A DNA stretch of 64,000 bases. Origin: Gammaproteobacteria bacterium (GTDB lineage Bacteria; Pseudomonadota; Gammaproteobacteria; Ga0077536). Positions 13 through 45,783 of this stretch are shown piece after piece (within the stretch, counting starts at the first letter, position 1; each line of letters begins with the position of its first letter). The stretch spans positions 3,080 to 67,079 of the forward strand of contig SHZM01000006.1 of NCBI GenBank assembly GCA_009692265.1, written 5' to 3'. The translations under genes were made by a program, and so were the position numbers. The notes below the pieces were generated by a model. It saw nothing but the letters and a program-made list of their open reading frames with translations. It had not been told where the DNA came from and did not search any database.

Positions 13-870
13 GTGGTCAGCTACACAAGGACAGCGCCCATGAGTTTTATCGACGTCGTCGACAAGGTTGAAGTACCCAAGCCCGCGCGGTTCTACACCG
101 CCCCGGCGTTCGAACAGGTCTTTGGTATTCCGGTCGCGTACCGCCGCCAAGGCAAAGGCGAGGCGGTGGTATTGATGCACGGCGCGGGGTTCACGCGAAT
201 GTGGCTCCCGCTGTATGGGATGCTGTCCGAAGCGGTCGATTTCATTGCGCCGGAAGCGCCGGGCTTTGGTGAGACGCCGATCCCGAAGTGGTTTAGAAAC
301 TTCGACGACCTGACCCTGCTCTATGATCAATTGTTCAATCAGCTCGGGCTCGAGCAAATCCATCTCATCGGCTTTTCGATGGGCGGCTGGGCGGCTGCCG
401 AATTCGCTTCGTTCTACCCGCGGCGGCTGAAATCACTTGCGCTCATCACCCCGGTTGGCTTGCGACTGCCGGATAATCCGGGGGTCGACATCTTCCAGCT
501 CGCAGCCCCGGAGCTCATGGATCGCCTGTTCAAAGACAAACATGTCATGCAGGAATTCATGATTGACCCGGAGGACTTCGATGAAGGCATCCATTTGTAT
601 TCGGAGTTCGCCGCCGCCGCGCGCCTGATGTGGGCACCGCGCTATAACCTCGCGCTCGAACGGCGCCTGCAACGCCTGACCTGCCCGACCCTGGTACTCG
701 GCGGCGAGGATGACCGACTGGTCCCGAACGAAATGTCCGATCGCTATGCCACCGTGCTGCCGAATGCGCGCCTGATCCGCGTTGCCGGCACCGGGCATGA
801 GCCTTGTCTCGAACGTCCGCGCGAAGTTGCCGATGCCCTGTTAGGCCTGATTAAGGAGACCACGTCATGA
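13..870 (+). CDS. alpha/beta-fold hydrolase (MhpC-like)
   Basis: GFSMGG nucleophile-elbow (GxSxG) motif, HGAG oxyanion motif, ~285 aa. Stop overlaps the next start (ATGA at 867-870). Confidence 0.8.
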   Translation: MVSYTRTAPMSFIDVVDKVEVPKPARFYTAPAFEQVFGIPVAYRRQGKGEAVVLMHGAGFTRMWLPLYGMLSEAVDFIAPEAPGFGETPIPKWFRNFDDLTLLYDQLFNQLGLEQIHLIGFSMGGWAAAEFASFYPRRLKSLALITPVGLRLPDNPGVDIFQLAAPELMDRLFKDKHVMQEFMIDPEDFDEGIHLYSEFAAAARLMWAPRYNLALERRLQRLTCPTLVLGGEDDRLVPNEMSDRYATVLPNARLIRVAGTGHEPCLERPREVADALLGLIKETTS

Positions 871-32263: not shown

Positions 32264-32804
32264 TCCGGAACACCGCGATTTCCCGAGGCATTCTTGGGTG
32301 TCCCGGAATAATTCTGTCGTCGGCGACATTGGCTTGAATGGGTCGATTCGATGGGTGTCCCCGATTCGGCTCCGCGATCGAGCATCATCGGCACTGAAAC
32401 CACCGAGATGCCGAAGACCAGCGTTGCGAAGAAAGCGCCCACCGTGCAATAAGCGAACAGAAATTGTGGATGGTCGACCGAGAACAGGTGCGTCAGGAAA
32501 TATTTCATCGTCGGCATCGGCATGCCGGCGAATTGGTGGGGGGCGGGCGTCGGCGGATCGCGGTGTTCGGATTCTTCCATCGAGCGGATTCCCGTGACCG
32601 GTTCGCGTGGCGGTCGCAGGCGTAAGGCACAAGTACAGGTTTAGGTACAGGTCACTCAAGGCCTGCAATCAATCTTAATCCTAGCAGCGTGTCAGGCTTC
32701 GCGGGCAGGCACATCGCAGGCGCTTGGTCGATGTCAACAATTCGCACTACGCAGGCAATCCCGGCGGCGCATAGGCGCCGCTGGGATTAATTTTGGTGGG
32801 GGGA

Positions 32805-33020
32805 TCAGCCTTCCCGCTCAAGCGCCTTACGCAGAGTATCCTTGCTGCGCAGGCGCGCGAGGTCTTCCTCGAATTCCCGGCTCTCGGCCCGCAGCTGCAG
32901 GATGTGCCAAACTATCCAGAAGGCACCGACCACGATGACCATCAGCATTTCGGTGCCGACGAACGGGTACATGGGGCCGATATCCGTCATCGCCCCGGCA
33001 AAGGATTCGATTGTCGCCAT
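32805..33020 (-). CDS. Small (71 aa) single-TM membrane protein immediately downstream of amt
   Basis: ATG is 23 nt after the amt stop. The sequence is 'MATIESFAGAMTDIGPMYPFVGTEMLMVIVVGAFWIVWHILQLRAE…'. Confidence 0.4.
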   Translation of the reverse strand: MATIESFAGAMTDIGPMYPFVGTEMLMVIVVGAFWIVWHILQLRAESREFEEDLARLRSKDTLRKALEREG

Positions 33021-33042: not shown

Positions 33043-34452
33043 TTAACCGCGAGCCGCCAGCAGATCGCCAGCTTCTGCGTGTACCGATTGCGTGACTTCC
33101 GCAGCGTCGAGTTCGCGCTGAATCTCGATCGAGACATCGAGTCCAGCGAGTTCGATTTCGCGCGGGATGCGAAGCAGACCGAAGGCATTCAACACCTTGG
33201 CTGCCACATAGCCGGGGAACACGCCCAGCACTGCAAACATGATCACGGCACCGATGAAATTGCCCCAGGGGGTGATCGCGGCGAAGCCCGCGGTCGGCGA
33301 TGAGGGATAGCCCCACAGCACAAACCCGGCGACCACCACCCCCAGGAAGCCTGTATAACCATGCACGGCGACCGCGCCAACGGCGCTGTCGAGCTTGAAG
33401 CGCCGTTCCATGTAATAGTGCAGCTTGTAGGAAATAACCGGCACGGTCGCGCCGATCAGGAAGGCCTGCAGCGGGTGATACAGATCATTACCTGCGGACG
33501 CGGCGATCACCCCGGCGAGACCACCCGAGTAGGTCCAGAAAGCATCGCCCTTCGCCACCGCGTGCATCGAAAGCATGCCGCCGCATAAGGCCGTGATGAA
33601 ATTGAACGTGATAGCTGACAGTGTGGTCGGTGCCAGATAGATATTGGTCGCCGAGAAAAACACGCCATCGCCGGCCTGTACATCAAACATTGGGATGTTG
33701 CACGCGGCGTAGAAACCCCAGAAGCCGGTGTAGATCAGGAAAAGCCCGATCGTCACCAACCATGGATTGTGCGGATTGATGTTGCGGGCTGTCCCGTCCG
33801 GCTTGAATTTGCCGAGGCGCGGTCCGAGCACCAGCAGCACGCCCAAGGTAAAGCCGCCGGCGATGGCATGCACCACCCCGGATGCGTACGCATCGTGGTA
33901 GCCAAGCTTGGCCACCATCCAGCCCGCCGGATGCCAACCCCAGGCCGCATCGATTATCCACAGCACCGAACCAATCAGCACGGCCAGGATCCAGAAGGCA
34001 CCCGAGCGGATCCGTTCGATGCAGTCGCCAGAGACGATGGAGGCGGTGGTCCAGGAGAACAGCAGGAACGCCGCGAAAAACACCCCGTTGAGGCGGGCCC
34101 ACAGCGCAGTATCGGCAGCCGTCACCGCGGCTGTCGCTGGCGCGCCGCCCATGTGAGTGCCCATCAATTCGCTCCACGGGACCGCGAAGGATGCCGGGAT
34201 GAGTCCACCTGTGATCCCGGGTCCGTTCGGGAGCGCCGAATAGATCCACCAGCCGAACAGATAGAACGTGATCCCCACCGTCGGGATCACCATGGTGTTC
34301 TTCATCAACGTATGCATGTGATTCTTGCGCCGCGAGGCGCCGACTTCATACATGCAAAAGCCAACGTGGATCAGAAACATGAAAACCACTGTCACCCAGT
34401 AGTAAAACTCGGTGAACAGTACGGTCAGTGCTGTGATGTCTTTATCCATCAT
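33043..34452 (-). CDS. amt: Ammonium transporter (Amt/MEP family)
   Basis: ~470 aa polytopic protein with Amt family features. Start 'ggagga-N5-ATGATGGAT' at 34452. It lies co-directionally downstream of DMFase-like cassette A. Confidence 0.9.
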   Translation of the reverse strand: MMDKDITALTVLFTEFYYWVTVVFMFLIHVGFCMYEVGASRRKNHMHTLMKNTMVIPTVGITFYLFGWWIYSALPNGPGITGGLIPASFAVPWSELMGTHMGGAPATAAVTAADTALWARLNGVFFAAFLLFSWTTASIVSGDCIERIRSGAFWILAVLIGSVLWIIDAAWGWHPAGWMVAKLGYHDAYASGVVHAIAGGFTLGVLLVLGPRLGKFKPDGTARNINPHNPWLVTIGLFLIYTGFWGFYAACNIPMFDVQAGDGVFFSATNIYLAPTTLSAITFNFITALCGGMLSMHAVAKGDAFWTYSGGLAGVIAASAGNDLYHPLQAFLIGATVPVISYKLHYYMERRFKLDSAVGAVAVHGYTGFLGVVVAGFVLWGYPSSPTAGFAAITPWGNFIGAVIMFAVLGVFPGYVAAKVLNAFGLLRIPREIELAGLDVSIEIQRELDAAEVTQSVHAEAGDLLAARG

Positions 34453-34624
34453 ATCCTCCTCGGTTGTTTTACTCAGGCACGCGCCTGTCCCCCATACGCC
34501 GGCGACACCTTGGGTCGCCGACACCTGTTTAGACCAGCGATCCTGCGACTCCATTCCAGCCGGCGCGCTGCGCGTGACCGACCCCGGGTTTTCCCTGGGT
34601 GGCGGCTGCGGTCAGGTGCGCCGC

Positions 34625-35020
34625 TCAGAGACTGCGGACAGGCATCCTTTCCCCCCGCGTGCGCCGCAAGCGCGTGGCGGCGCGGCTGGCGGCGGCTGGC
34701 GTGTCGAACGTCAGTGCTTCAAATATGATCAACGGGCGCGCGCGATCCGCGCTTAATTGGCCGACGCACCAGCGCCGCTCCGTTTCGGTACAGACCACCA
34801 CATACGCGCCTGGTAGCGGGCCGAAGTGCCGGTTATTGAGCGTAAAAAGACACTCCGCGAGTTGATTGAGTTTGTCCGGATCGAGCGTGCCGAGTAATGC
34901 AGACTCGAGTTTATTCGGGGTGCCCGCGAGCGCGGGCATCACATGTTTGCCGCGCGGTGGCGCGAGAGGCCGCCCCGGGTTCTGCTGCGGCGCCGGTTTT
35001 CGCGCGCGACGCGGACTCAC
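34625..35020 (-). CDS. Protein of unknown function (~131 aa), DMFase-cassette-associated, copy A
   Basis: GTG start overlaps the large-subunit stop (GTGA at 35017-35020). It is a paralog of 42499..42927 (shared 'GP.PG.YVvV…R..VGQL.AD.A.P…FE.L.F'). Confidence 0.6.
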   Translation of the reverse strand: MSPRRARKPAPQQNPGRPLAPPRGKHVMPALAGTPNKLESALLGTLDPDKLNQLAECLFTLNNRHFGPLPGAYVVVCTETERRWCVGQLSADRARPLIIFEALTFDTPAAASRAATRLRRTRGERMPVRSL

Positions 35021-37401
35021 GGCAATGGTCCTTTCTTGAGAAAGCCCTTGATCACGTTCTTCATCAGGCGCGACACGTTGTTGTCGTAATTGTGGTGGGA
35101 CAGTGCGCCACACCAGGCCAGCGAGCCGGGCGCGAAGACCGCCCCGTCATTCGGCGTCTTGTAGTAGATCATGTCCGCCCGAATCATCGGATTCTCATCG
35201 CCGCCGCCGTAAAAACCGCGCACCGAGAAGTGGACTTCCTCGTTGACCTGCAGCATGAGATCCGTATGGCCTTCGGAGCGCGCGAGAAGGAACGCGTGGT
35301 GCGGCGTGCCGAATTCCAGATCGTAGCGGTCGATCTCCAGGCCCGCGGCGCCGCCGCCGACGAGGCCGAAGTCACCGATCACCTCGTCCTGACCGATCCC
35401 TTGAAACATCCACGCGCATTCGGGCCGCAGGCTATCCGCTTCGCGCCGATAGTAAGTGGAAACATCGAAACCATAACCGGTGAACGTGAGTCCGCAGACT
35501 TTGCTCGGGATGCGACCGCGCGCCCGCCACATTCCGCCGTACTTGCCGTCAAATGCATTGTTGTATTCGCCCGGATTCGCGGTCCACGCGCGGGTACCGG
35601 CCTCGCCTTTGCGTACTTCGATGATATTGCTGTTGTCCGGATGGTACTGGCTGCACCAGTAAAAGCCGTTGGCACCGAGGTACATCCAGCGCCCGCCGCT
35701 GGCCTGGTAAGCCTCGTAGGCATTGAGCATGCGTTCGGAAGAGTACTCCGGATGGCTGCCCGTCAAGACCACCTGATAACGGGACAACAGCCCGAGTCCC
35801 TCGCGATCGAGATCCTCATCGGTATGCACATCGAACTCGAAATTCATCTGTTCGAGCCAATCGGTCAAATGCAGATCCGCGTTAAACTGCCATAACGACG
35901 GCGACAACCAGTGCCGATACTTCGGGCGCATGTTCAAGATCGGTCGCAGGCGCGAGCTGTAGCACACCCCACTGCCGTCCGAATGGCAGGAATAAGTGGA
36001 CAGACCGTATTCGCGATGCTCATTCAGATAGAGATCCGAAGCGTTCATGATCGGCACGCGCCCGGCCAGTAGCTGCGCGACGACGGAATTGGTGGCAAGG
36101 TTGTCGTTCGAATAGGCCATGTAGCTGTTGGTCGGCACGATGAACGCAATCTTCGCGGTCGCCGTCCCGCGCGGCGGCCGCACGAAGAACGGAATGTAGT
36201 CTTCGGTTTCCGGCGAATCCTTGCCACCGATCCGCAGGCGAGCCGCATAGGCCCCACTCTTCAAGGTGGTGGGCAAGGTATAGGTAAAATCCACTGCCCA
36301 CCGCGCATCGTCGAGGTCATCGTCATGGAAATGGATCGCGCCATACTCATGCGGAATGTGGTGATAGACGATATCGTCGCCGCTCCAGTTATAGCCGGTC
36401 ATGCCGCGGACCGGGAGATTGATGGCGAACCCATGCAACTGATTCGGTGAGATATCCACGATCTGGCACGAGGCGATATTAGTCGTGATGTTGGCGTGAA
36501 AATCCCAGGCACCCACCACGGCAATGCGCAGCTCCGCAGCGGCTCCCGCGAAGCCGCGCGCGAGCGCATCGATTTCTGCTTTCGAAAGTGCTCTATTCGA
36601 AATCCTGGGACGGTCGATTTTCCCGTTATAACACCAGACCTGTTCCGGCAGGGACACCGCGGAGATGGCCTCCTTGTAGTGACCCCCTTGAATGCTGCGT
36701 CCCGAGTCCGTCTCCGCGGTCGCCGCGGCGAACAGGACCGGCGCGTCATTCTTGGCCGGACCATGGGCGCTCTTGGTCTTTACCACTGCGCTAGTCTCGT
36801 GCGCAGGGTGCAGCAGCGCCATGCCGAGTCCGCCATTCGTCGATGACACGATCGGTTCCTGATACAGCACCACCTGCCCGGTGTCCGCGTCGTAGCTGGC
36901 CGCCACCAGGTACCATACCTTACGACGCAATGGTTTCCCGCTCGTGAGCGTGGTGAGCTTGCCGCGCGTCCCGCCGATCATCACAGTAAGACAACCCGCT
37001 TCATCAACAAACAGACCATAGCCGGACTTCCGGCCGACATCCCACTTGGTCACTACGCCCTGCATGCCTTTGTCATGGCAGTAGCCATGCGGTCCGGGGC
37101 CTGGGGTGGTGGGGAAAATAAAGGCCTGCACGGTGAAGCTTGCACAGTCCAGGCGTGAGTCGGCCGGTATCACTACATACGAGCCACCGTGAATCTTCTG
37201 CGGTCGCCCTTGGTAGCGTTGATTGCAGGGCGCTTTGATTTCTTTTTCCTTGAAACCAGGTCCTTCGGGATTCGTATCCCCATGGATTACACGCACGATC
37301 TGGACGTCGTAGCGCTCTCCCTTCTCGGCATTCACATAGAATTTGATCGTCTCGCCAGGACATGCGGAATACTTATCGCTGTAGCCGGTGATCCGAAGCA
37401 T
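35017..37401 (-). CDS. N,N-dimethylformamidase large (beta) subunit family protein, copy A
   Basis: 794 aa. It has the LamG-like central region and the conserved C-terminal catalytic region '…GGRWMYLGANGFYWCSQYHPD…YGGMWRARGR…' typical of DmfA2-family proteins. Preceded by a 'gagga' SD. Confidence 0.85.
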   Translation of the reverse strand: MLRITGYSDKYSACPGETIKFYVNAEKGERYDVQIVRVIHGDTNPEGPGFKEKEIKAPCNQRYQGRPQKIHGGSYVVIPADSRLDCASFTVQAFIFPTTPGPGPHGYCHDKGMQGVVTKWDVGRKSGYGLFVDEAGCLTVMIGGTRGKLTTLTSGKPLRRKVWYLVAASYDADTGQVVLYQEPIVSSTNGGLGMALLHPAHETSAVVKTKSAHGPAKNDAPVLFAAATAETDSGRSIQGGHYKEAISAVSLPEQVWCYNGKIDRPRISNRALSKAEIDALARGFAGAAAELRIAVVGAWDFHANITTNIASCQIVDISPNQLHGFAINLPVRGMTGYNWSGDDIVYHHIPHEYGAIHFHDDDLDDARWAVDFTYTLPTTLKSGAYAARLRIGGKDSPETEDYIPFFVRPPRGTATAKIAFIVPTNSYMAYSNDNLATNSVVAQLLAGRVPIMNASDLYLNEHREYGLSTYSCHSDGSGVCYSSRLRPILNMRPKYRHWLSPSLWQFNADLHLTDWLEQMNFEFDVHTDEDLDREGLGLLSRYQVVLTGSHPEYSSERMLNAYEAYQASGGRWMYLGANGFYWCSQYHPDNSNIIEVRKGEAGTRAWTANPGEYNNAFDGKYGGMWRARGRIPSKVCGLTFTGYGFDVSTYYRREADSLRPECAWMFQGIGQDEVIGDFGLVGGGAAGLEIDRYDLEFGTPHHAFLLARSEGHTDLMLQVNEEVHFSVRGFYGGGDENPMIRADMIYYKTPNDGAVFAPGSLAWCGALSHHNYDNNVSRLMKNVIKGFLKKGPLP

Positions 37402-37472: not shown

Positions 37473-37922
37473 TCAGCGCACTTTATGCCCGTAACTGGCC
37501 AGGAGTTCGTGCACCCGTTTGACGAAAATCGCGTGCTCACAGGAATCTTCGGATGGATAGGAGTCGGCGAAGATCTTGACCGGCTTGCCGCGCACGCCAG
37601 TACACATGCCAATGCGGTAATCGCGATGCGCGGCGACACAGATTCGCACGTACTTGCCGGCCATCGGCGCACGCCGGAGTTTGTCGATCACATGCGCAAG
37701 TTCTTCACTGTGCTGCACACCGGCCTTGCCACCTTTGCCCGGCAAGCCGATCGGGTTCTCGCAATGTTCAGCGAGCAGGCGCTCGCGCGTCGTGCGGTCG
37801 GTCAGCAGCGGGAGGACATGGGTGCGGGTAATGAAGTCATCCGTACTGGTATAACCCTGGTTGGTTTGGACGCCGGTCGGTTTGGTCGCCATCGTTCCTC
37901 CCAGGCTTTTTGACTCGTGCAA
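37473..37922 (-). CDS. Putative DMFase small (alpha) subunit-like protein, copy A
   Basis: ~140-149 aa gene directly upstream of the large subunit. It is a paralog of 45352..45783 (shared 'IDKLR…', 'EHAIFVKR'). The size matches the ~15 kDa DMFase alpha subunit. The assignment is by context. Confidence 0.55.
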   Translation of the reverse strand: MHESKSLGGTMATKPTGVQTNQGYTSTDDFITRTHVLPLLTDRTTRERLLAEHCENPIGLPGKGGKAGVQHSEELAHVIDKLRRAPMAGKYVRICVAAHRDYRIGMCTGVRGKPVKIFADSYPSEDSCEHAIFVKRVHELLASYGHKVR

Positions 37923-37993
37923 TACTTATAACACTGGCGTCCGGCAAAATGAAGGTTAGTTCTTTCAATGCGCAGAAACTTTCTCTACTCTCA
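37893..37993. promoter_or_regulatory. Divergent intergenic/promoter region between DMFase-like cassette A (minus) and the GS-like operon (plus)
   Basis: ~100 bp, locally AT-richer ('cttataacactggcgtccggcaaaatgaaggttagttctttcaatgcgcagaaactttctctactctcaatgcaacgt'). It is flanked by divergent start codons. Confidence 0.45.
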
Positions 37994-39364
37994 ATGCAAC
38001 GTATGAATACGACCCCGCTAAACTGGTCTGCCGCTTCGGGTACCGCGCTTAGCGACATTTTGGAGCGCGAGCGCATCGAGTTTGTGCACGCGGGGATCTT
38101 CGATACTGAAGGAGTGTTCCGCGAAAAGCGGTTGCCGGTGGCGCTGGCGCGCCGGTACCTGGCGGAGGGTTGGTCTTTCATCGACGCGCTGCCGTACTGG
38201 GGGCCCAACGACACGGTACGCGCGGACCGCGCTTATCGCAGCGAAGCCTGCCAGCTTGATGTCGCGAGTCTGCGCCCTTACCCGTTCGAACCTCACGCCG
38301 CGTTGCTGGTGGCGGACTACACCGGCGACAGCGCCGCGTTGTCGCCGCGGGCACTGCTCGCGGCCCAGATCGCGCGCGCGCACCAACTTGGCTTCGAACC
38401 CCTTGGCGCAAGCGAGTTCGAGTTCATCATTCTCGACGAAACGCCCGCTACGCTGAGCGCCAAGAATTTCGATCAGCTGCAGACGCTGGCACAGGAGAAT
38501 TGTTGCTGGTCGGGGCTATATCCGGCCGCGGGCGCAGAATTCCTGCGCGATTACGATCACTGTCTGCGGGCCGGGGATATTCCCCTGCATCATCTGTGCT
38601 CGGAACTGGGCCCGGGGTGCCTGGAAGCCGCGCTGCCCGTGCGCCAACTGGCGACGGCGGCGGACGATGCCGCACTTTTCAAGCTGTTCACCAAGGCGTT
38701 CTGCATTCAACGCAGTCTCACCGCTTCTTTCATGGCCCAGCTCTCGGATACGCATCCCGGACTGGGCGGGCATCCCAGCTTGTCGCTGCGCACGCGCACG
38801 ACTGACGTCGCCGCGTTCCATGCGGCCGACGATCCGCGCGGAATCTCGATCGTGTGCCGGCAATTTATCGCGGGCATCCTGCAAGCCTTGCCCGAACTCA
38901 TGCCGATGTTCGCCAGTACGGTGAATGCTTATCGCCGGTATGTGCCGGGCAATTGGGCGCCACGCACCGCGACCTGGGGGCTCGGGAATTACACCTGTGG
39001 TTTACGGGTGGTGGCTGGCGCGCCGGACGACTGTCGGATTGAATTTCGCTTGCCCGGCGCGGATACCAATCCGCACCTGGCCTTCGCGCTGATGCTCGGC
39101 GCCGGGTTGCGGGGAATCGAGCAAAATCTGCAACCCCCGCCTGAAACGACCGACATCGGCCGCGAGTTCGTGCATCCGGCGATCGGTCCGTTACCGCGCT
39201 CGCTGCTCGAAGCCGCCGAACGCATGCAGCGTAGTACGCTGGCGGCTGATTTGTTTGGGGCCGAGTTCGTGACCCATTTCACCCAGAGCTGTATTCAGGA
39301 AGACATCACAATGCGCCGGCACGTCGCGGCATTTGAACGCAAGCGTTACCTTCATCACGTATGA
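37994..39364 (+). CDS. Glutamine synthetase-like protein 1 (divergent GlnA-family paralog)
   Basis: It has the GS catalytic-domain layout ('GASEFEFII', 'NAYRRYVPGNWAPRTATWGLGNYTCGLRV'). The canonical HHE.APGQ.E region is replaced by 'HHLCSELGPGCLE'. Confidence 0.75.
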   Translation: MQRMNTTPLNWSAASGTALSDILERERIEFVHAGIFDTEGVFREKRLPVALARRYLAEGWSFIDALPYWGPNDTVRADRAYRSEACQLDVASLRPYPFEPHAALLVADYTGDSAALSPRALLAAQIARAHQLGFEPLGASEFEFIILDETPATLSAKNFDQLQTLAQENCCWSGLYPAAGAEFLRDYDHCLRAGDIPLHHLCSELGPGCLEAALPVRQLATAADDAALFKLFTKAFCIQRSLTASFMAQLSDTHPGLGGHPSLSLRTRTTDVAAFHAADDPRGISIVCRQFIAGILQALPELMPMFASTVNAYRRYVPGNWAPRTATWGLGNYTCGLRVVAGAPDDCRIEFRLPGADTNPHLAFALMLGAGLRGIEQNLQPPPETTDIGREFVHPAIGPLPRSLLEAAERMQRSTLAADLFGAEFVTHFTQSCIQEDITMRRHVAAFERKRYLHHV

Positions 39365-39405
39365 GCGTGGCGCTTTAAACCATCAGCACCCGGAGGAGCC
39401 TTGCT

Positions 39406-40872
39406 ATGACCGCATTGGAGAATTACGTCAAAGACACTGCGCGCGCGGAAGGCGTCAAGAAAGTCCGCGCGATGATCAAAGCGCTGGGCGTCGAGTACAT
39501 CTACTTCCAGTTCGTGTCGGTCACCGGGCGAATCGTCGGTAAGGGTGCGCCTGCCGATCACTGGGAGCGAATCGCCACTAAGGGCTTCCAGCTGGTCTAT
39601 GGTTCGACCGCCAATCTGTTCATCAGTCGCAAAGGGCGTTACCTCGGCTACGGGCCGGAGGCCCATGAGCTGGTCGGCATCGCAGATCCGGAAACGTTTG
39701 TGCAGTTGCCGTGGGAACCGCGCGTGGCGCGGGTGTTCTGCACCTTATTCCGCAATCGCGAAGAGCTGGTCGACCCCGGCGGCTATCTGAGCTCGGATTG
39801 CCGCGGCAATCTCACACGCGCCCATACCGCGTTCGAAAAAAAGCACGGCCTGCGGCTGCGGCTCGGCACCGAACCCGAAATGATGTGGTTGAAAAAGGGT
39901 GCCGACGGCAAACCCGCTGGCGGCGTCACCAAGCCTTATTGTTACCACATCGATCAGTTCGAAGAACTGCGACCGATCACGCTCAAGGTGACCGAGTACT
40001 GTCGCAAGATGGGTATTGACTGCATTCAGGGTGATCACGAAGACGCCCCCGGACAGCTCGAACTGAACTGGACGTACGACGATGTCGAGCGGACGTCCGA
40101 TCGGCTGACCACCTACCGTCAGATCTGCACGCAGGTGGCTCGCGAGTTCAACGTCATCGCGTGCTTCATGACCAAGCCTTTCATGAAAGTCTCGGCGAAC
40201 GGCTGTCACCATAATTTCTCGCTGTGGAAAGGCGGCAAGGACCAGGTGACTACCTTCGATGGCCTGTCGAAGTTCGGCATGTCCGAGGTGTTCACCTACG
40301 TCACGGGTGGCCAGAACAAATTCGATCCCGAAGGCAAGGATCTCCGCATGCCCGGGCCGATCGGCCAATGGGCCGCCGGCGGCATCGTTAAACACCTGCC
40401 AGCGCTGACTGCGCTCGGGGCGTCCACGGTGAACTCCTACCGGCGCCTGCTCGACCAGGGCTACTGGGCGCCCGTCTACAACAATTGGGGCTATCAGAAT
40501 CGGACCTGTGCGCTGCGCGTGTCCGCACCAGGGCGTTTCGAGTATCGTGCCGTCGATTCGATGGTCAATCCCTATTTGTTGAATGCAGCGTTGCTGGCGG
40601 TCATGGATGAAGGCATCAGCCAAAAGCTGGATCCCGGTCCGCTGGAGCAGCGCAATATCTACGAACTCGAACTCGCCGGGAAAAAAGTGGTGAAGCTGCC
40701 CACGAACCTCGGCATGGCGCTGGATGCGATGGAGGCCGATCCCTTGGTGCGCTCGGCGCTTCCGGGCGAGATGTGGGATGTGTTCATCGACTACAAACGT
40801 GATGAATGGGACAAATTTCTGGCGACGGTCACAGCCTGGGACCACGACACTTACATGGACTATCTGCCCTAG
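39406..40872 (+). CDS. Glutamine synthetase-like protein 2 (gamma-glutamyl-amine ligase type, GmaS/PuuA/IpuC-like)
   Basis: 'GDHEDAPGQLELNW', 'NSYRRLLDQGYWAPVYNNWGYQNRTCALRV' and 'EPEMMW' are canonical GS catalytic motifs. 488 aa. Confidence 0.85.
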   Translation: MTALENYVKDTARAEGVKKVRAMIKALGVEYIYFQFVSVTGRIVGKGAPADHWERIATKGFQLVYGSTANLFISRKGRYLGYGPEAHELVGIADPETFVQLPWEPRVARVFCTLFRNREELVDPGGYLSSDCRGNLTRAHTAFEKKHGLRLRLGTEPEMMWLKKGADGKPAGGVTKPYCYHIDQFEELRPITLKVTEYCRKMGIDCIQGDHEDAPGQLELNWTYDDVERTSDRLTTYRQICTQVAREFNVIACFMTKPFMKVSANGCHHNFSLWKGGKDQVTTFDGLSKFGMSEVFTYVTGGQNKFDPEGKDLRMPGPIGQWAAGGIVKHLPALTALGASTVNSYRRLLDQGYWAPVYNNWGYQNRTCALRVSAPGRFEYRAVDSMVNPYLLNAALLAVMDEGISQKLDPGPLEQRNIYELELAGKKVVKLPTNLGMALDAMEADPLVRSALPGEMWDVFIDYKRDEWDKFLATVTAWDHDTYMDYLP

Positions 40873-40887
40873 CCCGGAGCAAACATC

Positions 40888-41772
40888 ATGCGGGACTTCA
40901 GCCTTAGCGACGGACAGGTTACTGACTTCGAACGGGATGGCTTCATCACCGTCGATCGCATCATCGATGACGACGAAGTGGCACTCCTGCGTGCGCGCTA
41001 TGACGAGTTGTTCAAAGGTCACTGGGAAACCGGCCTGGTGCCCGACGAAGTAAACTGGCTGGAAGGACGCGATCCCCCCGATCACACCCGTCAAATCTGC
41101 AATGGCTGGAAATCCGATCGGTTTGTGGCGAGCGTCATCCTGCAGGAATCGATCGGCCGGGCCTGCGCTACGCTCGGCCGTTGGCCCGGGACCCGCATCA
41201 GCCAGGACAACATTCTGTGGAAGCCGCCAGGCGGCAAACCGTTAGGGTTCCATCAAGATTCTGCCTACGAACAATGGACGAACCTGCCGGACTGGGTGAG
41301 CTGCTGGATTGCGCTCGATGACACCAGCGCCGAAGGTGGCACGGTTGAGTATGTGCGGGGATCGCACCGCTGGGGCCAGTCCGGCATGATCGAGCAGTTT
41401 CATGCGCCGCAGAACCCGGTCAAAGACCTCGAAAAAGCCGCCGCTGCGGCGGGGGTTACGCAGATCGAGCGGGTGCCGATCGTCGTCAAAGCCGGCGGCG
41501 GCGCGTTTCATGGCGGCTGGACCTGGCACGGCTCGGACGTCAACCGCTGCGAGGTCCCGCGCCGTTCGATCGTGGCCCATTGCATGTCCTCCGAAACCCG
41601 CTTTCATCCGACCTATGTCGGCTATATCTACAGCCGGTACAAACGTTTCGGCGATGACACCATGGATGAAGCCTTTTTCCCAATTCTGTGGCGCCAGGAT
41701 GGCTACCGCTCACCGTTCATTGCACCCTACGCCGCACGGCACATTACCTGGGGCGAAGCGCTGCCGGCGTGA
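40888..41772 (+). CDS. Phytanoyl-CoA dioxygenase (PhyH) family Fe(II)/2-oxoglutarate dioxygenase
   Basis: 'WKPPGGKPLGFHQDSAYEQW' (HxD) and 'GGAFHGGWTWHGS' (distal His) form the PhyH fold. The stop overlaps the next gene's GTG. Confidence 0.85.
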   Translation: MRDFSLSDGQVTDFERDGFITVDRIIDDDEVALLRARYDELFKGHWETGLVPDEVNWLEGRDPPDHTRQICNGWKSDRFVASVILQESIGRACATLGRWPGTRISQDNILWKPPGGKPLGFHQDSAYEQWTNLPDWVSCWIALDDTSAEGGTVEYVRGSHRWGQSGMIEQFHAPQNPVKDLEKAAAAAGVTQIERVPIVVKAGGGAFHGGWTWHGSDVNRCEVPRRSIVAHCMSSETRFHPTYVGYIYSRYKRFGDDTMDEAFFPILWRQDGYRSPFIAPYAARHITWGEALPA

Positions 41773-42482
41773 GGCGCCGGCTCGGCCTGCTGGCCTGCGA
41801 CAGCATCTGGGAACCCCTGCGTTCCCGTTTTGGCGATTACGCCGAGATGTACACCGCGCTGCTCCAGGCGGCCGGTGCCGACTTCGAACTCAAGGTTTTT
41901 GCGGTTCATCGAGGCGTGCTGCCGGCGCATCCGAGGGACTGCGATGCGTGGCTGATCTCCGGCTCGCGCGCCGGGGTGTATGACGCCCAACCCTGGATCG
42001 CGACCTTGCAGAATTTCGCACGTGCGGCGCATGCGATCGAGGTCCCCCAGGTCGGGATCTGTTTCGGTCATCAGTTGCTGGCACAGGCTCTCGGTGGCCG
42101 CGTCGAACGCGCGGCCACCGGCTGGGGTCTCGGCAATCTTGAGGTCGAACTGCGCGGCGAGTCGGCGTACCCGGCACCGACGTCCGGTCCGCTCCGGTTG
42201 TTCATGGCGCATCAAGATCAGGTTGTGACCCTGCCACCCGACGCGCAGTGGCTGGCCGCGGCGGCGCATTGCCGCCACGCTGCGTTCGCGCTGGGTGAGC
42301 AGGTGCTGGGCGTCCAGGCGCATCCCGAGTTCACGGCTGACTTCATGCGGGAGATGACCCTCGAAGCGACGTTCGAAATCCCGCCCGCCGTGCGCGCCGC
42401 GGCGCTCAGCAGTTTTGCTAAGCCGGTCGACAGCGCCGTTATCGGGCGCTGGATCGCCACTTTTCTGGGGCTGCTCAGCTGA
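41769..42482 (+). CDS. Class I glutamine amidotransferase-like protein (gamma-glutamyl-amide hydrolase type, PuuD/IpuF-like)
   Basis: 'VGICFGHQLLAQALGG' holds the catalytic Cys and 'VQAHPEF' the His. GTG start gives a GTGA overlap with PhyH. Confidence 0.75.
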   Translation: MRRRLGLLACDSIWEPLRSRFGDYAEMYTALLQAAGADFELKVFAVHRGVLPAHPRDCDAWLISGSRAGVYDAQPWIATLQNFARAAHAIEVPQVGICFGHQLLAQALGGRVERAATGWGLGNLEVELRGESAYPAPTSGPLRLFMAHQDQVVTLPPDAQWLAAAAHCRHAAFALGEQVLGVQAHPEFTADFMREMTLEATFEIPPAVRAAALSSFAKPVDSAVIGRWIATFLGLLS

Positions 42483-42498: not shown

Positions 42499-42927
42499 TT
42501 AGCGGCAGCTGAGCTGCGCCGCCGCGCGGAGTTCTGTCGCCTTGGCGCGCGCCTTCGCTTCGCTCGCGAACACCAGATCCTCGAACAACTGCACCGGCGC
42601 GGCCGGATCCGCACACAGTTGCCCGACCGCATAACGCCCGGATGCCACTGCGACAATCACATAAAAGCCGCGCACCGGGCCGGGTCGCGCACCGTTGAGG
42701 CGATACAGCACTTTGGCAAGATCGGCGAAGTGGCTGTCATCTTCGACCACCGCCTCGACGCGTGTCGGCGGCGCATCGGAGCGCACCCAGCGATGCGGCA
42801 TTTCTCCGGCGTCGCTGGTGAGCGGTAGTGCTTGCTCGCCGCGATAGGCCGGATGCAGCCACCAGGTCTCATCGCGTTTCAGCGGGACTTCGGCGGCCGC
42901 TTTGACTTTCGAGCGGCGGGGGTTCAC
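42499..42927 (-). CDS. Protein of unknown function (142 aa), DMFase-cassette-associated, copy B
   Basis: ATG overlaps the large-subunit stop (ATGA). Paralog of 34625..35020. Confidence 0.6.
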   Translation of the reverse strand: MNPRRSKVKAAAEVPLKRDETWWLHPAYRGEQALPLTSDAGEMPHRWVRSDAPPTRVEAVVEDDSHFADLAKVLYRLNGARPGPVRGFYVIVAVASGRYAVGQLCADPAAPVQLFEDLVFASEAKARAKATELRAAAQLSCR

Positions 42928-45368
42928 GGCAGAGGACCGTTCTTCAGGAAGCCATCAAGCGTATTGCGCATCAACCGCGACACGTTGTTGTCGTAGCGAT
43001 TGTGCGACAGCGAGCCGCACCAGGCCATCGAGCCGACCGAAAACACCGCGCCGTCATTCGGGGTCTTGTAGTAGACGATGTCCGCACGGGTGCGCGGATT
43101 GTTGTCCCCCGTGCCGCCGGCGATATACCCGCGCGCGTTAAAAGTTGACTCTTCGGTGACCGAGACGAACATGTCGGAATGACCTTCTGAATTTGCGAGC
43201 AAATAGGCGCGATGCGGCGTGCCCAGTTCCAGATCGTAGCGATCGAGTTCGAGCCCGGCCGCGCCATCCCCGACCAGGCCGAAGTTCCCGATCGGCTCGT
43301 CACGCGCAATGCCTTTGAACATCCACTTGCATTCGGGCAGTTCGCTGTCCGGCGCCCGGCGGTAGTACGAGGAGTAAGTCAAGCCGAACGACGTGAACGT
43401 GACGCCGAGAATCTTGCTCATGACCCTGCCGCGTACCCGCCACAGGCCACCATGCTTGCCGTCGAACGCATTGCAGTATTCGCCGGGCGCGATGGTCCAG
43501 GCACGGGTCCCGTTGTCGCCTTTGCGCACTTCGACAATGTTCGGGTTCTCCGGGTGGGGCTGACAGATCCAGTAAAAGCCGTTCGCGGCGAGATACATGA
43601 AGCGGCCGCCGGCCTGCTGGTAATCGTGATACGCCTGCATCTGCTGCTCGGACACATACTCCGGATGATGGCCGGTCAGCACGATGCGGTACTGGTTCAA
43701 CAGCGCTACGCCTTCACGCTGCACGTCTTCGTCGGTCAGGATGTCCAAGTCGTAATTCATCTCGTGCAGCCAGTCGACCAGATGCAGATCCGCATTGAAC
43801 TGCCAGAGCGACGGCGACAACACATGCACGTATTTGGGACGCATATTCAGAATCGGGCGCAGCCTGGACGAAATATTCACGCCCCAGCCGTCGCGGTAGG
43901 ACGTATAAGTGCCAAGCCCGTAACCGCGCTCTTGGTTCAGCAGCAGATCACCCGGCTGCAGCAGCGGCACCTGGCCCGTCAGCAGTTGCGCGATCACGGA
44001 ATTCACGCTCAAGTTATCGTTCGCATAGGCGAGGTAGCTGTGCATCGCCATCACGAGCGCGATTTTCGCGGTCGGGCCGCTGGCCGGCGGGCGCACGAAG
44101 AACGGGACATAATCCTCGTACTCAGCGCTGGTGGAGCCATTCACACGCAAGCGCGCGGCATACACCCCGCTTTTGAGATTGGCCGGAACTTTGAACGTGA
44201 ACGACGGCGCCCAGCGCGCGTCGTCGACCGACTCATCGTGAAAATGAATCGCGCCATATTCTTGCGGGGCGTGACGGAAGCTCATGTAGTCGGAAGACCA
44301 GTTGCAGCCGGTGACCCCGCGCACCGGCAGATTGACGCCGACGCCGTGCAGATGGTTCGGGCCCGTATCCACGATGTGCGTCGAGGCCGCGTTATCCGCG
44401 ATGTTCGCGCTGAAATCCCAGGCCCCGACCACTGCGCCGCGCAGTTCGCCGGGGATGTTTTCACAACCGGCTGACGCCAGCAGCATTTCCACCTCGGCCG
44501 CGCTGAGCGCGCGATTCGCGAGCTTAGGGCGTTCGATCTTGCCGTTGTATTTCTGGGTGTGGACCGGGATCTCCCACGGCATCGGGAGATGCTTGAAGTG
44601 GCCACCATGCAGCGTGCGCCCGGAGTGGGTCTCCAGCGTGCTGGCTGCAACCAACAGCGGACAATCGCTCGTACGCGGGCCGGCGCTGCGGGTGCGATAA
44701 CACGCGCTCCCGGCGGTGTCGTCGAGCGGGTGCAGCATGCTGAGGCCATGGCCACCATTCGTGATCGTCACGAACGGGGTCTGCCACACGCGAATCTCGC
44801 CGCTTGCCGCATCAAACGTGGCCGCCACCTTGTACCAGACCTTGCGAAACAGCGGTTTGCGGGTCGCGTATTCTTCAACCTTGCCGCGGCCGCGCCCGAT
44901 GCGGAGCGCCAGTTCACCACTTTCGTTGATGAACAGGCCATAGCCGACGCCCGTGGACGTGTTGAATTTAGAGATAATCGCCTGCGCGCCCACCGCCACA
45001 CCCTCGGTATCGACCAGCGGCGTGGTGGGATAGACGTAGGCGCACAAAGTGAAACTCTGCACGTCGAGCCGTGCATCGTGCGGCACCATGACATAGCTGC
45101 CGGCATACACCGCCTGATGCTGACCGCGATAGCGGCGATTAGTAGCGCTGCGGACCAGTTTTTCCTTGAATCCCGGCCCCTCCGGGTTCGTATCTCCGTG
45201 AATCAACCGCACGATGTCGGCCTGATACGGTTCGTCGAACTCGCTGTGCACGTGGAAAGTGACTTCTTCGCCCGGGCGGACCGAACACCGATCGGTGTAG
45301 CCGGTCACGCGCAGCATCATTGGTTGGGTGTTTGCCATGCGGATCAGCCTTTCAGGATTCGATGCCAT
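42924..45368 (-). CDS. N,N-dimethylformamidase large (beta) subunit family protein, copy B
   Basis: ~800 aa and collinear with copy A throughout ('MLRVTGYTDRCSVRPGEE…', '…GGRFMYLAANGFYWICQPHPEN…'). The start is likely the internal ATG at 45338 or 45320. Confidence 0.85.
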   Translation of the reverse strand: MASNPERLIRMANTQPMMLRVTGYTDRCSVRPGEEVTFHVHSEFDEPYQADIVRLIHGDTNPEGPGFKEKLVRSATNRRYRGQHQAVYAGSYVMVPHDARLDVQSFTLCAYVYPTTPLVDTEGVAVGAQAIISKFNTSTGVGYGLFINESGELALRIGRGRGKVEEYATRKPLFRKVWYKVAATFDAASGEIRVWQTPFVTITNGGHGLSMLHPLDDTAGSACYRTRSAGPRTSDCPLLVAASTLETHSGRTLHGGHFKHLPMPWEIPVHTQKYNGKIERPKLANRALSAAEVEMLLASAGCENIPGELRGAVVGAWDFSANIADNAASTHIVDTGPNHLHGVGVNLPVRGVTGCNWSSDYMSFRHAPQEYGAIHFHDESVDDARWAPSFTFKVPANLKSGVYAARLRVNGSTSAEYEDYVPFFVRPPASGPTAKIALVMAMHSYLAYANDNLSVNSVIAQLLTGQVPLLQPGDLLLNQERGYGLGTYTSYRDGWGVNISSRLRPILNMRPKYVHVLSPSLWQFNADLHLVDWLHEMNYDLDILTDEDVQREGVALLNQYRIVLTGHHPEYVSEQQMQAYHDYQQAGGRFMYLAANGFYWICQPHPENPNIVEVRKGDNGTRAWTIAPGEYCNAFDGKHGGLWRVRGRVMSKILGVTFTSFGLTYSSYYRRAPDSELPECKWMFKGIARDEPIGNFGLVGDGAAGLELDRYDLELGTPHRAYLLANSEGHSDMFVSVTEESTFNARGYIAGGTGDNNPRTRADIVYYKTPNDGAVFSVGSMAWCGSLSHNRYDNNVSRLMRNTLDGFLKNGPLP

Positions 45369-45783
45369 ATTGGTCGAGCAACGCCTTGAGGCGTTTCAAA
45401 AAAATCGCGTGTTCGGCGTCCTCCCGCGAGCGATAGCGTTCCTTGGTGATCTTCACCACGCCGCCACGTCGCCCCGGCAGGATCCCGATCGCGTATTCCT
45501 GCCATGGCACGGTTTCGACAATGGTGTGCTTGCCGGCCTGGGGCGTCATCCGCAACTTGTCGATCAGATGTTTCAGTTCCGGGCTGTGATTGGGGGGTTT
45601 AACGCCCGGCTGTGCCGCCGCGCCGCGTGGATGCGTCCGATGTTCGGCGATGATGCGCGCGCGACTCGCCGGATCCCGCAGGTGCGGCAGGATGTACATT
45701 CGGTTGTCGTAGTCGTCGACTGCGGTGAATCCGTAGTCACGGGCCAACGCAGTGGTCGGACCTGGATGACGTCTGGTGGCCAT
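45352..45783 (-). CDS. Putative DMFase small (alpha) subunit-like protein, copy B
   Basis: 143 aa. Paralog of 37473..37922. It lies directly upstream of large subunit B. Confidence 0.55.
   Translation of the reverse strand: MATRRHPGPTTALARDYGFTAVDDYDNRMYILPHLRDPASRARIIAEHRTHPRGAAAQPGVKPPNHSPELKHLIDKLRMTPQAGKHTIVETVPWQEYAIGILPGRRGGVVKITKERYRSREDAEHAIFLKRLKALLDQYGIES

Follow-up and report, generated by a model that had tools for sequence, protein, structure and literature searches.

Two gene cassettes for DMFase-type iron amidohydrolases lie within the 64,000-nt stretch of gammaproteobacterial DNA analysed here (the window), and both share the same layout on the minus strand, in which a small-subunit gene (alpha) and a large-subunit gene (beta) are followed by a further small cistron, which we call alpha'. 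DMFase-type amidohydrolases have been described as two-subunit alpha2beta2 enzymes, and a third gene or subunit is not described for them in the openly readable papers that we searched. The locus thus raises the question of what the third cistron encodes and what its product contributes to the enzyme. The coordinates of the cassettes, of the sequence features discussed and of the neighbouring genes are collected in Table 1.

Table 1. Features of the two amidohydrolase cassettes and their surroundings. Coordinates are those of the window unless given as residues.
Feature	Coordinates	Strand	Description
Hairpin after the 71-aa ORF	32757-32788		GC-rich, 14-bp stem
71-aa ORF	32805..33020	(-)	has one hydrophobic segment; 23 nt downstream of the Amt-like gene
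Amt-family transporter gene	33043..34554	(-)	70 nt downstream of alpha'1; neighbourhood kept in related loci L001 and L002
alpha'1 (third cistron, cassette 1)	34625..35020	(-)	131 aa; GTG start in GTGA overlap with beta1 stop; small-subunit paralogue, diverged and shortened at the N-terminus
Conserved core of alpha'1 (residues 48-122)	34655..34879	(-)	homologous to alpha residues about 59-120; signature LN..R.GP..G.YV ... VGQL.AD...P..lF
beta1, DMFase-type large subunit	35017..37401	(-)	794 aa; Fe site intact; three alpha'-clade insertions
Insertion 1	beta1 residues about 190-194		GGxGM; domain II
Insertion 2	beta1 residues about 237-251		15-17 aa, well conserved SGR.I.GGHFK....P.ELP.H; domain II
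Insertion 3	beta1 residues about 393-396		start of domain III
alpha1, bona fide small subunit	37473..37892	(-)	probably 139 aa from ATG at 37892; mechanical ORF from TTG at 37922
Divergent four-gene block between the cassettes	37910..42482	(+)	the four genes listed next
Glutamine-synthetase-like gene	37910..39364	(+)	
Glutamine-synthetase-like gene	39406..40872	(+)	
PhyH-type Fe/2OG dioxygenase	40888..41772	(+)	
Class-I glutamine amidotransferase	ending at 42482	(+)	
alpha'2 (third cistron, cassette 2)	42499..42927	(-)	142 aa; GTG start in GTGA overlap with beta2 stop; second alpha' subtype
beta2, second DMFase-type large subunit	42924..45368	(-)	814 aa as listed; true start probably slightly downstream, near MMLRVTGY
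alpha2, small subunit of cassette 2	45352..45783	(-)	143 aa; 42% identical to alpha1

We found that both third cistrons are genuine genes. In the raw sequence, alpha'1 starts in the context ccGTGAgt, whose TGA is the stop codon of beta1, and alpha'2 in the context ccGTGAac, whose TGA is that of beta2; the longest mechanical ORF of alpha'1 opens upstream at 35113, and orthologues keep the -4 start instead. The initial annotation had proposed that the two ORFs are paralogs with Arg/Pro/Lys-rich N-termini and a common core motif, and this is borne out, with 39% identity between the proteins over 85 aa (BLASTP, E 2e-14) and with the N-termini (MSPRRARKPAPQQ in alpha'1, MNPRRSKVKAAAE in alpha'2) and the motif correct as they were quoted. 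The N-terminal motif of the alpha'2 subtype is WWLHPAYRG. At least 67 cluster-level homologues are present in the protein collection for alpha'1 and at least 67 for alpha'2, one of the latter (P0068, from a Gammaproteobacteria MAG) being 100% identical. Furthermore, alpha' is under purifying selection, with a median pairwise dN/dS of 0.20 (Nei-Gojobori, codon alignments of 84 non-redundant copies from related loci; 538 pairs, 0.05 < dS < 1.5), compared with 0.23 for alpha, the accepted small subunit. The coding signatures for which a check had been proposed are thus present in both ORFs, and the dN/dS, the conservation and a confident AF2 fold rule out that alpha' is a chance or spurious ORF. 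Across 1.84 billion proteins, the alpha' family has 83 representatives at 50% clustering, a few of them repeat-protein false positives, and no beta-alpha' or alpha-alpha' fusion was found among the 83. Long fusion-like matches (1,079-6,264 aa) were treated as false positives, as they apparently arise from summed sub-threshold repeats; one of them, P0167, is Thr/Val/Ser-rich.

The other two genes of each cassette encode DMFase subunits. Pfam DMFA2_C matches both large subunits (E 2.5e-94 for beta1 and 8.4e-88 for beta2), and beta1 matches the large subunit of the Paracoccus DMFase (PDB 6lvb_A) at E 8e-187, an alignment from which the Fe ligands Y399, Y440 and E521 and the catalytic residues H519 and N547 can be read as kept. 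The large subunit is also homologous over its full length to the solved N-acetyl-(R)-beta-phenylalanine acylase (PDB 8huy / 8i5a; E 3.5e-131). Amidases acting on natural-type substrates much bulkier than DMF thus belong to the family, which bears on the substrate of the marine and freshwater clade. The small ORF upstream encodes a true small subunit of the DMFase type. An alpha profile built without Paracoccus sequences matches pAMI2 DmfA1 at 52 bits, and the AF2 model of alpha (pLDDT 88.6; H12-31, H33-45, H63-73, E81-87, E91-96, E106-112, H115-133), which served as a positive control, matches chain B of the solved enzyme (6lvb_B) in Foldseek with E 2e-5, probability 1.0 and TM 0.68/0.76. The homologues of alpha1 all carry PF26354 (DMF_alpha) and are 135-140 aa long, a length that favours the ATG over the TTG start. 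As for beta2, its relatives open at MLR(I/V)TGY, and a start at that position would abolish the apparent 17-nt overlap between alpha2 and beta2.

Next, we examined the relationship of alpha' to these proteins and found remote paralogy with the alpha encoded in its own cassette. The view of the initial annotation that it has no recognisable domain was wrong, as alpha' falls remotely within the DMFase small-subunit family PF26354. Direct sequence searches of Pfam, NCBIfam and the PDB with either alpha' returned nothing usable; the empty Pfam result is in part due to the absence of PF26354 from the Pfam copy searched, in which even true alpha proteins went unmatched, and the relationship between alpha' and alpha was therefore tested independently. 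A likeness between the alpha' core and the C-terminal half of alpha can be seen by eye. The single proteins alpha'1 and alpha1 are 33% identical over 33 aa (BLASTP, E 2e-6), and the alpha' and alpha HMMs cross-match, with 71 ORF segments matched by both at E <= 1e-3. Comparison of the two profiles with hhalign gave a probability of 97.1% (E 5.5e-11, 58 columns) for alignments harvested from genome loci and of 95.3% (E 2.3e-8, 62 columns) for alignments gathered separately from the protein database. Additionally, precomputed PF26354 matches are found in most homologues of the alpha'1 subtype and in two of the alpha'2 subtype (P0127, P0128), some of them flagged as weak, and the same family is carried by the upstream small ORF in the cassettes of relatives (precomputed annotation, context look-ups). 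The likeness detected by hhalign is limited to about 60 C-terminal columns, and the joint alignment of alpha and alpha' is nearly gap-free over the last ~75 residues. The alpha' profile did not reach 6lvb_B among PDB sequences, and the link of alpha' to the solved small subunit is therefore transitive, running from alpha' to the alpha of the clade and from there to DmfA1.

The predicted structures divide alpha' into a confident core and a disordered N-terminus. Its AF2 model, computed from an 85-sequence alignment, has a mean pLDDT of 83, with blocks 1-30 scoring 53-70, and the confident core of alpha'1 comprises H48-61, E68-79, E83-90, E97-105 and H108-122. This order of a helix, three strands and a helix is the same in the alpha' and alpha models, whereas the two long N-terminal helices of alpha (H12-31, H33-45) are missing from alpha', which has only H37-43 after a low-confidence basic tail. 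A Foldseek search of the PDB with the alpha' model gave no significant match, 6lvb_B standing at rank 18 (E 1.4, probability 0.23, TM 0.31/0.33), and the whole-chain fold is unlike that of 6LVB chain B. The residues L58, G67, Q88, D92, A111 and A115 are invariant in alpha'. The loop motifs LN..R.GP and VGQL.AD are peculiar to it, whereas alpha has DKLR..P..GKY, G.RG.PV and EHAIF.KR; in place of the EHAIF.KR of the C-terminal helix and the G.RG.PV loop of alpha, alpha' has AA.R..A..L and VGQL.AD...P. Our best reading of these sequences is that a duplication of the gene for the small subunit of a DMFase-type iron amidohydrolase gave rise to the third cistron, and the cassette would then be a clean case of a subunit gene that was duplicated and of which one copy was stripped to its core.

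We then investigated how constantly alpha' accompanies the large subunit. A large-subunit alignment scan with one genome per species gave at least 570 relatives, and the best 80 loci (72-97% identical to beta1) were analysed, which derive from freshwater Gammaproteobacteria MAGs, many Pelagibacter (SAR11), Arenicellales, Thioglobus, Pseudothioglobus, Njordibacter and others. Stop-to-stop segments of the loci were translated and scored with three HMMs, for alpha, beta and alpha'. Among 94 large-subunit genes, 4 lie at a contig end, and 88 of the remaining 90 have alpha' directly after them, the two others being those of the Paracoccus plasmids pAMI2 and pAMI5, which had been added as canonical comparators. 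Within the clade, alpha' is therefore directly downstream of beta in 88 of 88 genes with enough downstream DNA, including that on an Aminobacter plasmid, and co-occurrence with DMFase-beta-family genes, which the initial annotation had named as a check, holds everywhere examined. The order alpha-beta-alpha' is seen in ~71 cases and beta-alpha'-alpha in ~17; the position of alpha varies, alpha' stays 3' of beta, and all three genes co-occur in every clade cassette. Contexts fetched from the alpha' side are likewise all alpha-beta-alpha' cassettes, even for the three most divergent homologues, and the genes surrounding them differ. For example, plasmid pcAMD1 of Aminobacter niigataensis has the order LuxR-alpha-beta-alpha' with an ATGA overlap. 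The distant large subunits of Halalkalicoccus, Agrobacterium and Rhodococcus (42-47% identity) are accompanied by alpha and have no alpha'.

Upon classifying the 88 beta/alpha' junctions by the first start codon at or after the -4 position, we observed a 4-nt overlap (NTGA) in 19, typical of the window clade and Aminobacter, a 1-nt overlap in 30, typical of SAR11, and gaps of 4-30 nt in 25, of 31-80 nt in 12 and of over 80 nt in 2, so that 49 of the 88 junctions overlap by 1 or 4 nt. The initial annotation had based the coupling of the third cistron to the large subunit on the 4-nt start-stop overlap. Conservation of both ORFs and their tight or translational coupling to the large subunit stand, and the overlap is present in both window copies, but it is not universal across the family. 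Overall, tight beta-alpha' linkage is general and the exact 4-nt overlap is lineage-specific.

The large subunits themselves differ according to the presence of alpha'. In an alignment of 13 of them, three insertions in beta are found in 8 of 8 alpha'-containing loci and in 0 of 5 alpha'-less loci, the latter including the canonical dmfA1-dmfA2 of Paracoccus; they are placed in domains (Table 1) by the boundaries of the solved enzyme (PMC7686228). The correlation suggests, as a lead, that the insertions are a candidate docking surface for alpha'. It may also mirror one shared ancestral event, not function, and the insertions could serve substrate specificity instead.

The surroundings of the window cassettes hold several genes that recur in related loci. 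No terminator-like site was found between alpha'1 and the Amt gene, which is probably in the same transcript. The 71-aa ORF that comes next is 75% identical to an ORF at the same position in L001 (9881-10096), and L002 also has a 71-aa gene at this place; a hairpin lies after the window copy, and the operon may run alpha-beta-alpha'-Amt-71aa. The pair of glutamine-synthetase-like genes and the PhyH gene adjoin amidase cassettes in L001 (1234-5015) and L002 (553-5061) too, with the amidotransferase in L002 only; cassette 2 lies on the far side of this block in the window, and the two cassettes are adjacent in L002. Together, the block and the Amt-like transporter look like a gamma-glutamylation route for an amine that the amidase sets free. 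The alpha/beta/alpha' cassette of marine relatives stands beside rhodopsin and flotillin genes, a neighbourhood described as the 'FArhodopsin' cluster in PMC10308929, where the DMFase is named without its small partners, and in a 7.8-Mb genome a flotillin gene is directly upstream of alpha (loci L041 577-3274, Pelagibacter; L074 2215-4960, Pseudothioglobus; L092 1349-3079). On an Agrobacterium pAt plasmid (L090 1278-2936), a branched-chain amino-acid ABC permease encoded just upstream of beta carries an alpha domain at its C-terminus (72 bits, alpha HMM). This fusion is a hint that docking on a transporter occurs in some DMFase-like enzymes, and it is probably the reason that several sources give free-standing alpha proteins the names 'inner-membrane translocator' or 'branched-chain amino acid transport system permease'. 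Finally, several cassette-bearing environmental MAGs (L012, L013, L017, L025; beta 76-97% identical) are labelled Klebsiella pneumoniae, 'uncultured Klebsiella sp.' or 'uncultured Enterobacteriaceae'; their gene content and their closeness to the window (about 60% G+C) make these labels look wrong.

What, then, would a second, shortened small subunit do? We put a probability of about 0.5 on the reading that alpha' is an obligatory third subunit and that the protomer is alpha-beta-alpha', where we infer the binding, the stoichiometry and the docking site. Under this reading, alpha' would be synthesised in step with the large subunit and would bind beta as a second, non-equivalent small subunit, in a complex that is probably (alpha-beta-alpha')2. 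It would dock on a surface that the canonical DMFase lacks, for which the three beta1 insertions (Table 1) are the candidates, and would stabilise the large subunit or shape access to the active site, like alpha. In the structure of the Paracoccus enzyme, the small subunit is bound mainly to domain III, forms part of the lining of the substrate entrance and inserts its N-terminal helix as a wedge between the two large subunits. The small subunit is needed for both activity and stability, as the large subunit by itself has no activity and reduced stability, and the enzyme varies in its oligomeric state (PMC7686228). The retention of the core but not of the wedge, the different conserved loops, the production of alpha' together with beta and the fact that it never replaces alpha argue for an obligatory third component at a second site. 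Counting against this reading are the recombinant two-gene Paracoccus DMFase, which is as active as the native enzyme, the mismatch of the modelled whole chain to the solved small subunit (TM 0.31-0.33), and the absence of beta-alpha' or alpha-alpha' fusions among the 83 representatives.

Among the candidate roles that the initial annotation had offered, a third subunit and an assembly factor are both retained as readings, and the metallochaperone is dropped, having no conserved ligand set. The assembly factor is the main rival, though a rather unlikely one. Drawn by analogy, it makes alpha' a transient subunit-mimic maturation chaperone, a degenerate small-subunit copy that would hold new beta at the small-subunit site, open or monomeric, during loading of the 2-Tyr-1-carboxylate Fe(III) site and would then be exchanged for alpha. 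By this analogy alpha' has all four descriptive features of the nitrile hydratase activators compared below (PMC3511329), and the loss of the N-terminal helices, the first of which wedges between beta subunits in the solved alpha, would be expected of a placeholder that blocks final assembly. The canonical two-gene DMFase, however, gains iron and full activity in E. coli without such a factor; a mimic would reuse the site of alpha, whereas the extra beta insertions suggest a new binding surface; the invariant surface motifs of alpha' differ from those of alpha; and equimolar coupled synthesis, though not decisive, is more typical of a stoichiometric subunit. It is improbable that alpha' is an alternative or regulatory small subunit competing with alpha for the same site on beta, in mixed complexes that would differ in activity, substrate access or oligomeric state, for instance through a block of tetramer formation. 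The homologous core common to alpha and alpha' is consistent with such competition, as are the variable oligomeric state of the solved enzyme and its small subunit lining the substrate entry channel (PMC7686228), but the two are always encoded in one cassette and often translationally coupled, which leaves no means of independent regulation, and the loop motifs conserved within each paralogue differ between them.

We regard the two remaining readings as having little chance of being right. Anchoring of the amidase to the membrane, to a transporter or to flotillin microdomains through the basic N-terminus is very unlikely: although flotillin genes adjoin the cassette in SAR11, in Pseudothioglobus and in the 7.8-Mb genome, Agrobacterium has a fusion of an ABC permease with the alpha domain and an Amt transporter gene follows alpha'1 in the window, the N-terminus is poorly conserved, is not basic in every lineage and contains no hydrophobic or amphipathic segment, and no flotillin gene lies beside either window cassette among the ORFs scanned. 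A classical metallochaperone that binds and delivers iron is hardly to be expected at all, as no metal ligands are conserved in alpha'; its sole support is the position beside an iron enzyme gene. The invariant residues (L, G, Q, D, A, A) include no conserved Cys/His/Asp/Glu ligand set, Ala or Val takes the place of both subtype 1 Cys residues in subtype 2, with no Cys or His common to both subtypes, and there is no chaperone-family match in Pfam, NCBIfam or the PDB.

The sole public trace of the alpha' family is an automatic Pfam annotation. We regard the cassette as a variant of the known DMFase-type amidase cassettes in which the small subunit is duplicated and one copy truncated, a duplication that would yield either an asymmetric heterotrimer or a subunit-mimic chaperone. 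The alpha'-containing clade is common in SAR11, Arenicellales, Pseudothioglobus and freshwater Gammaproteobacteria, and DmfA-type proteins have been detected in ocean metaproteomes, where they were assigned to Alpha- and Gammaproteobacteria. Alpha' is not a new kind of system, but it alters the set of proteins to be expected of an enzyme found widely among SAR11 and other oligotrophs. If the third, alpha-like protein is needed, as in the third-subunit reading that we prefer, expressing only the dmfA1 and dmfA2 homologues of these organisms may yield a protein that is inactive or unstable, and pipelines that call alpha' 'hypothetical' miss part of the enzyme. If instead the chaperone reading were true, this would be the first 'subunit-swapping' maturation outside the nitrile hydratase/thiocyanate hydrolase group, and it would occur in many of the SAR11 genomes recovered.

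Finally, we compared the cassette with known systems. The two-gene cassettes of Paracoccus pAMI5, Rhodococcus pUSK13_1 and Halalkalicoccus plasmid 2 and the Agrobacterium fusion belong to the same alpha and large-subunit families as the window cassettes, but these four have no alpha' downstream and a beta without the three insertions; the canonical dmfA1-dmfA2 operon likewise contains no alpha' gene. The 'self-subunit swapping' activators of Co-type nitrile hydratases (NhlE, NhhG, P14K) are small proteins encoded directly downstream of the structural genes, with weak similarity to the structural subunit that does not bind metal and with no metal-binding motif of their own (PMC3511329). In size, downstream gene position, subunit-like character and lack of a metal motif alpha' is like them, a likeness in possible mechanism and not in family; there is no sequence relationship, the enzyme, the metal centre and the fold are all different, and swapping by alpha' would be an analogy alone. 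The small subunit DmfA1 of Paracoccus (6LVB chain B; PF26354) differs from alpha' in being encoded before the large subunit rather than after it, and alpha' is additional to a normal alpha, is without the two long N-terminal helices, has a short, disordered and basic N-terminus and gives no significant whole-chain fold match. DmfA1 and alpha' nevertheless share a homologous C-terminal core, a size of ~14-15 kDa and the lack of a cofactor motif, and the gene of each shares an operon with that of a DMFA2_C large subunit, by binding which alpha' would be expected to act.
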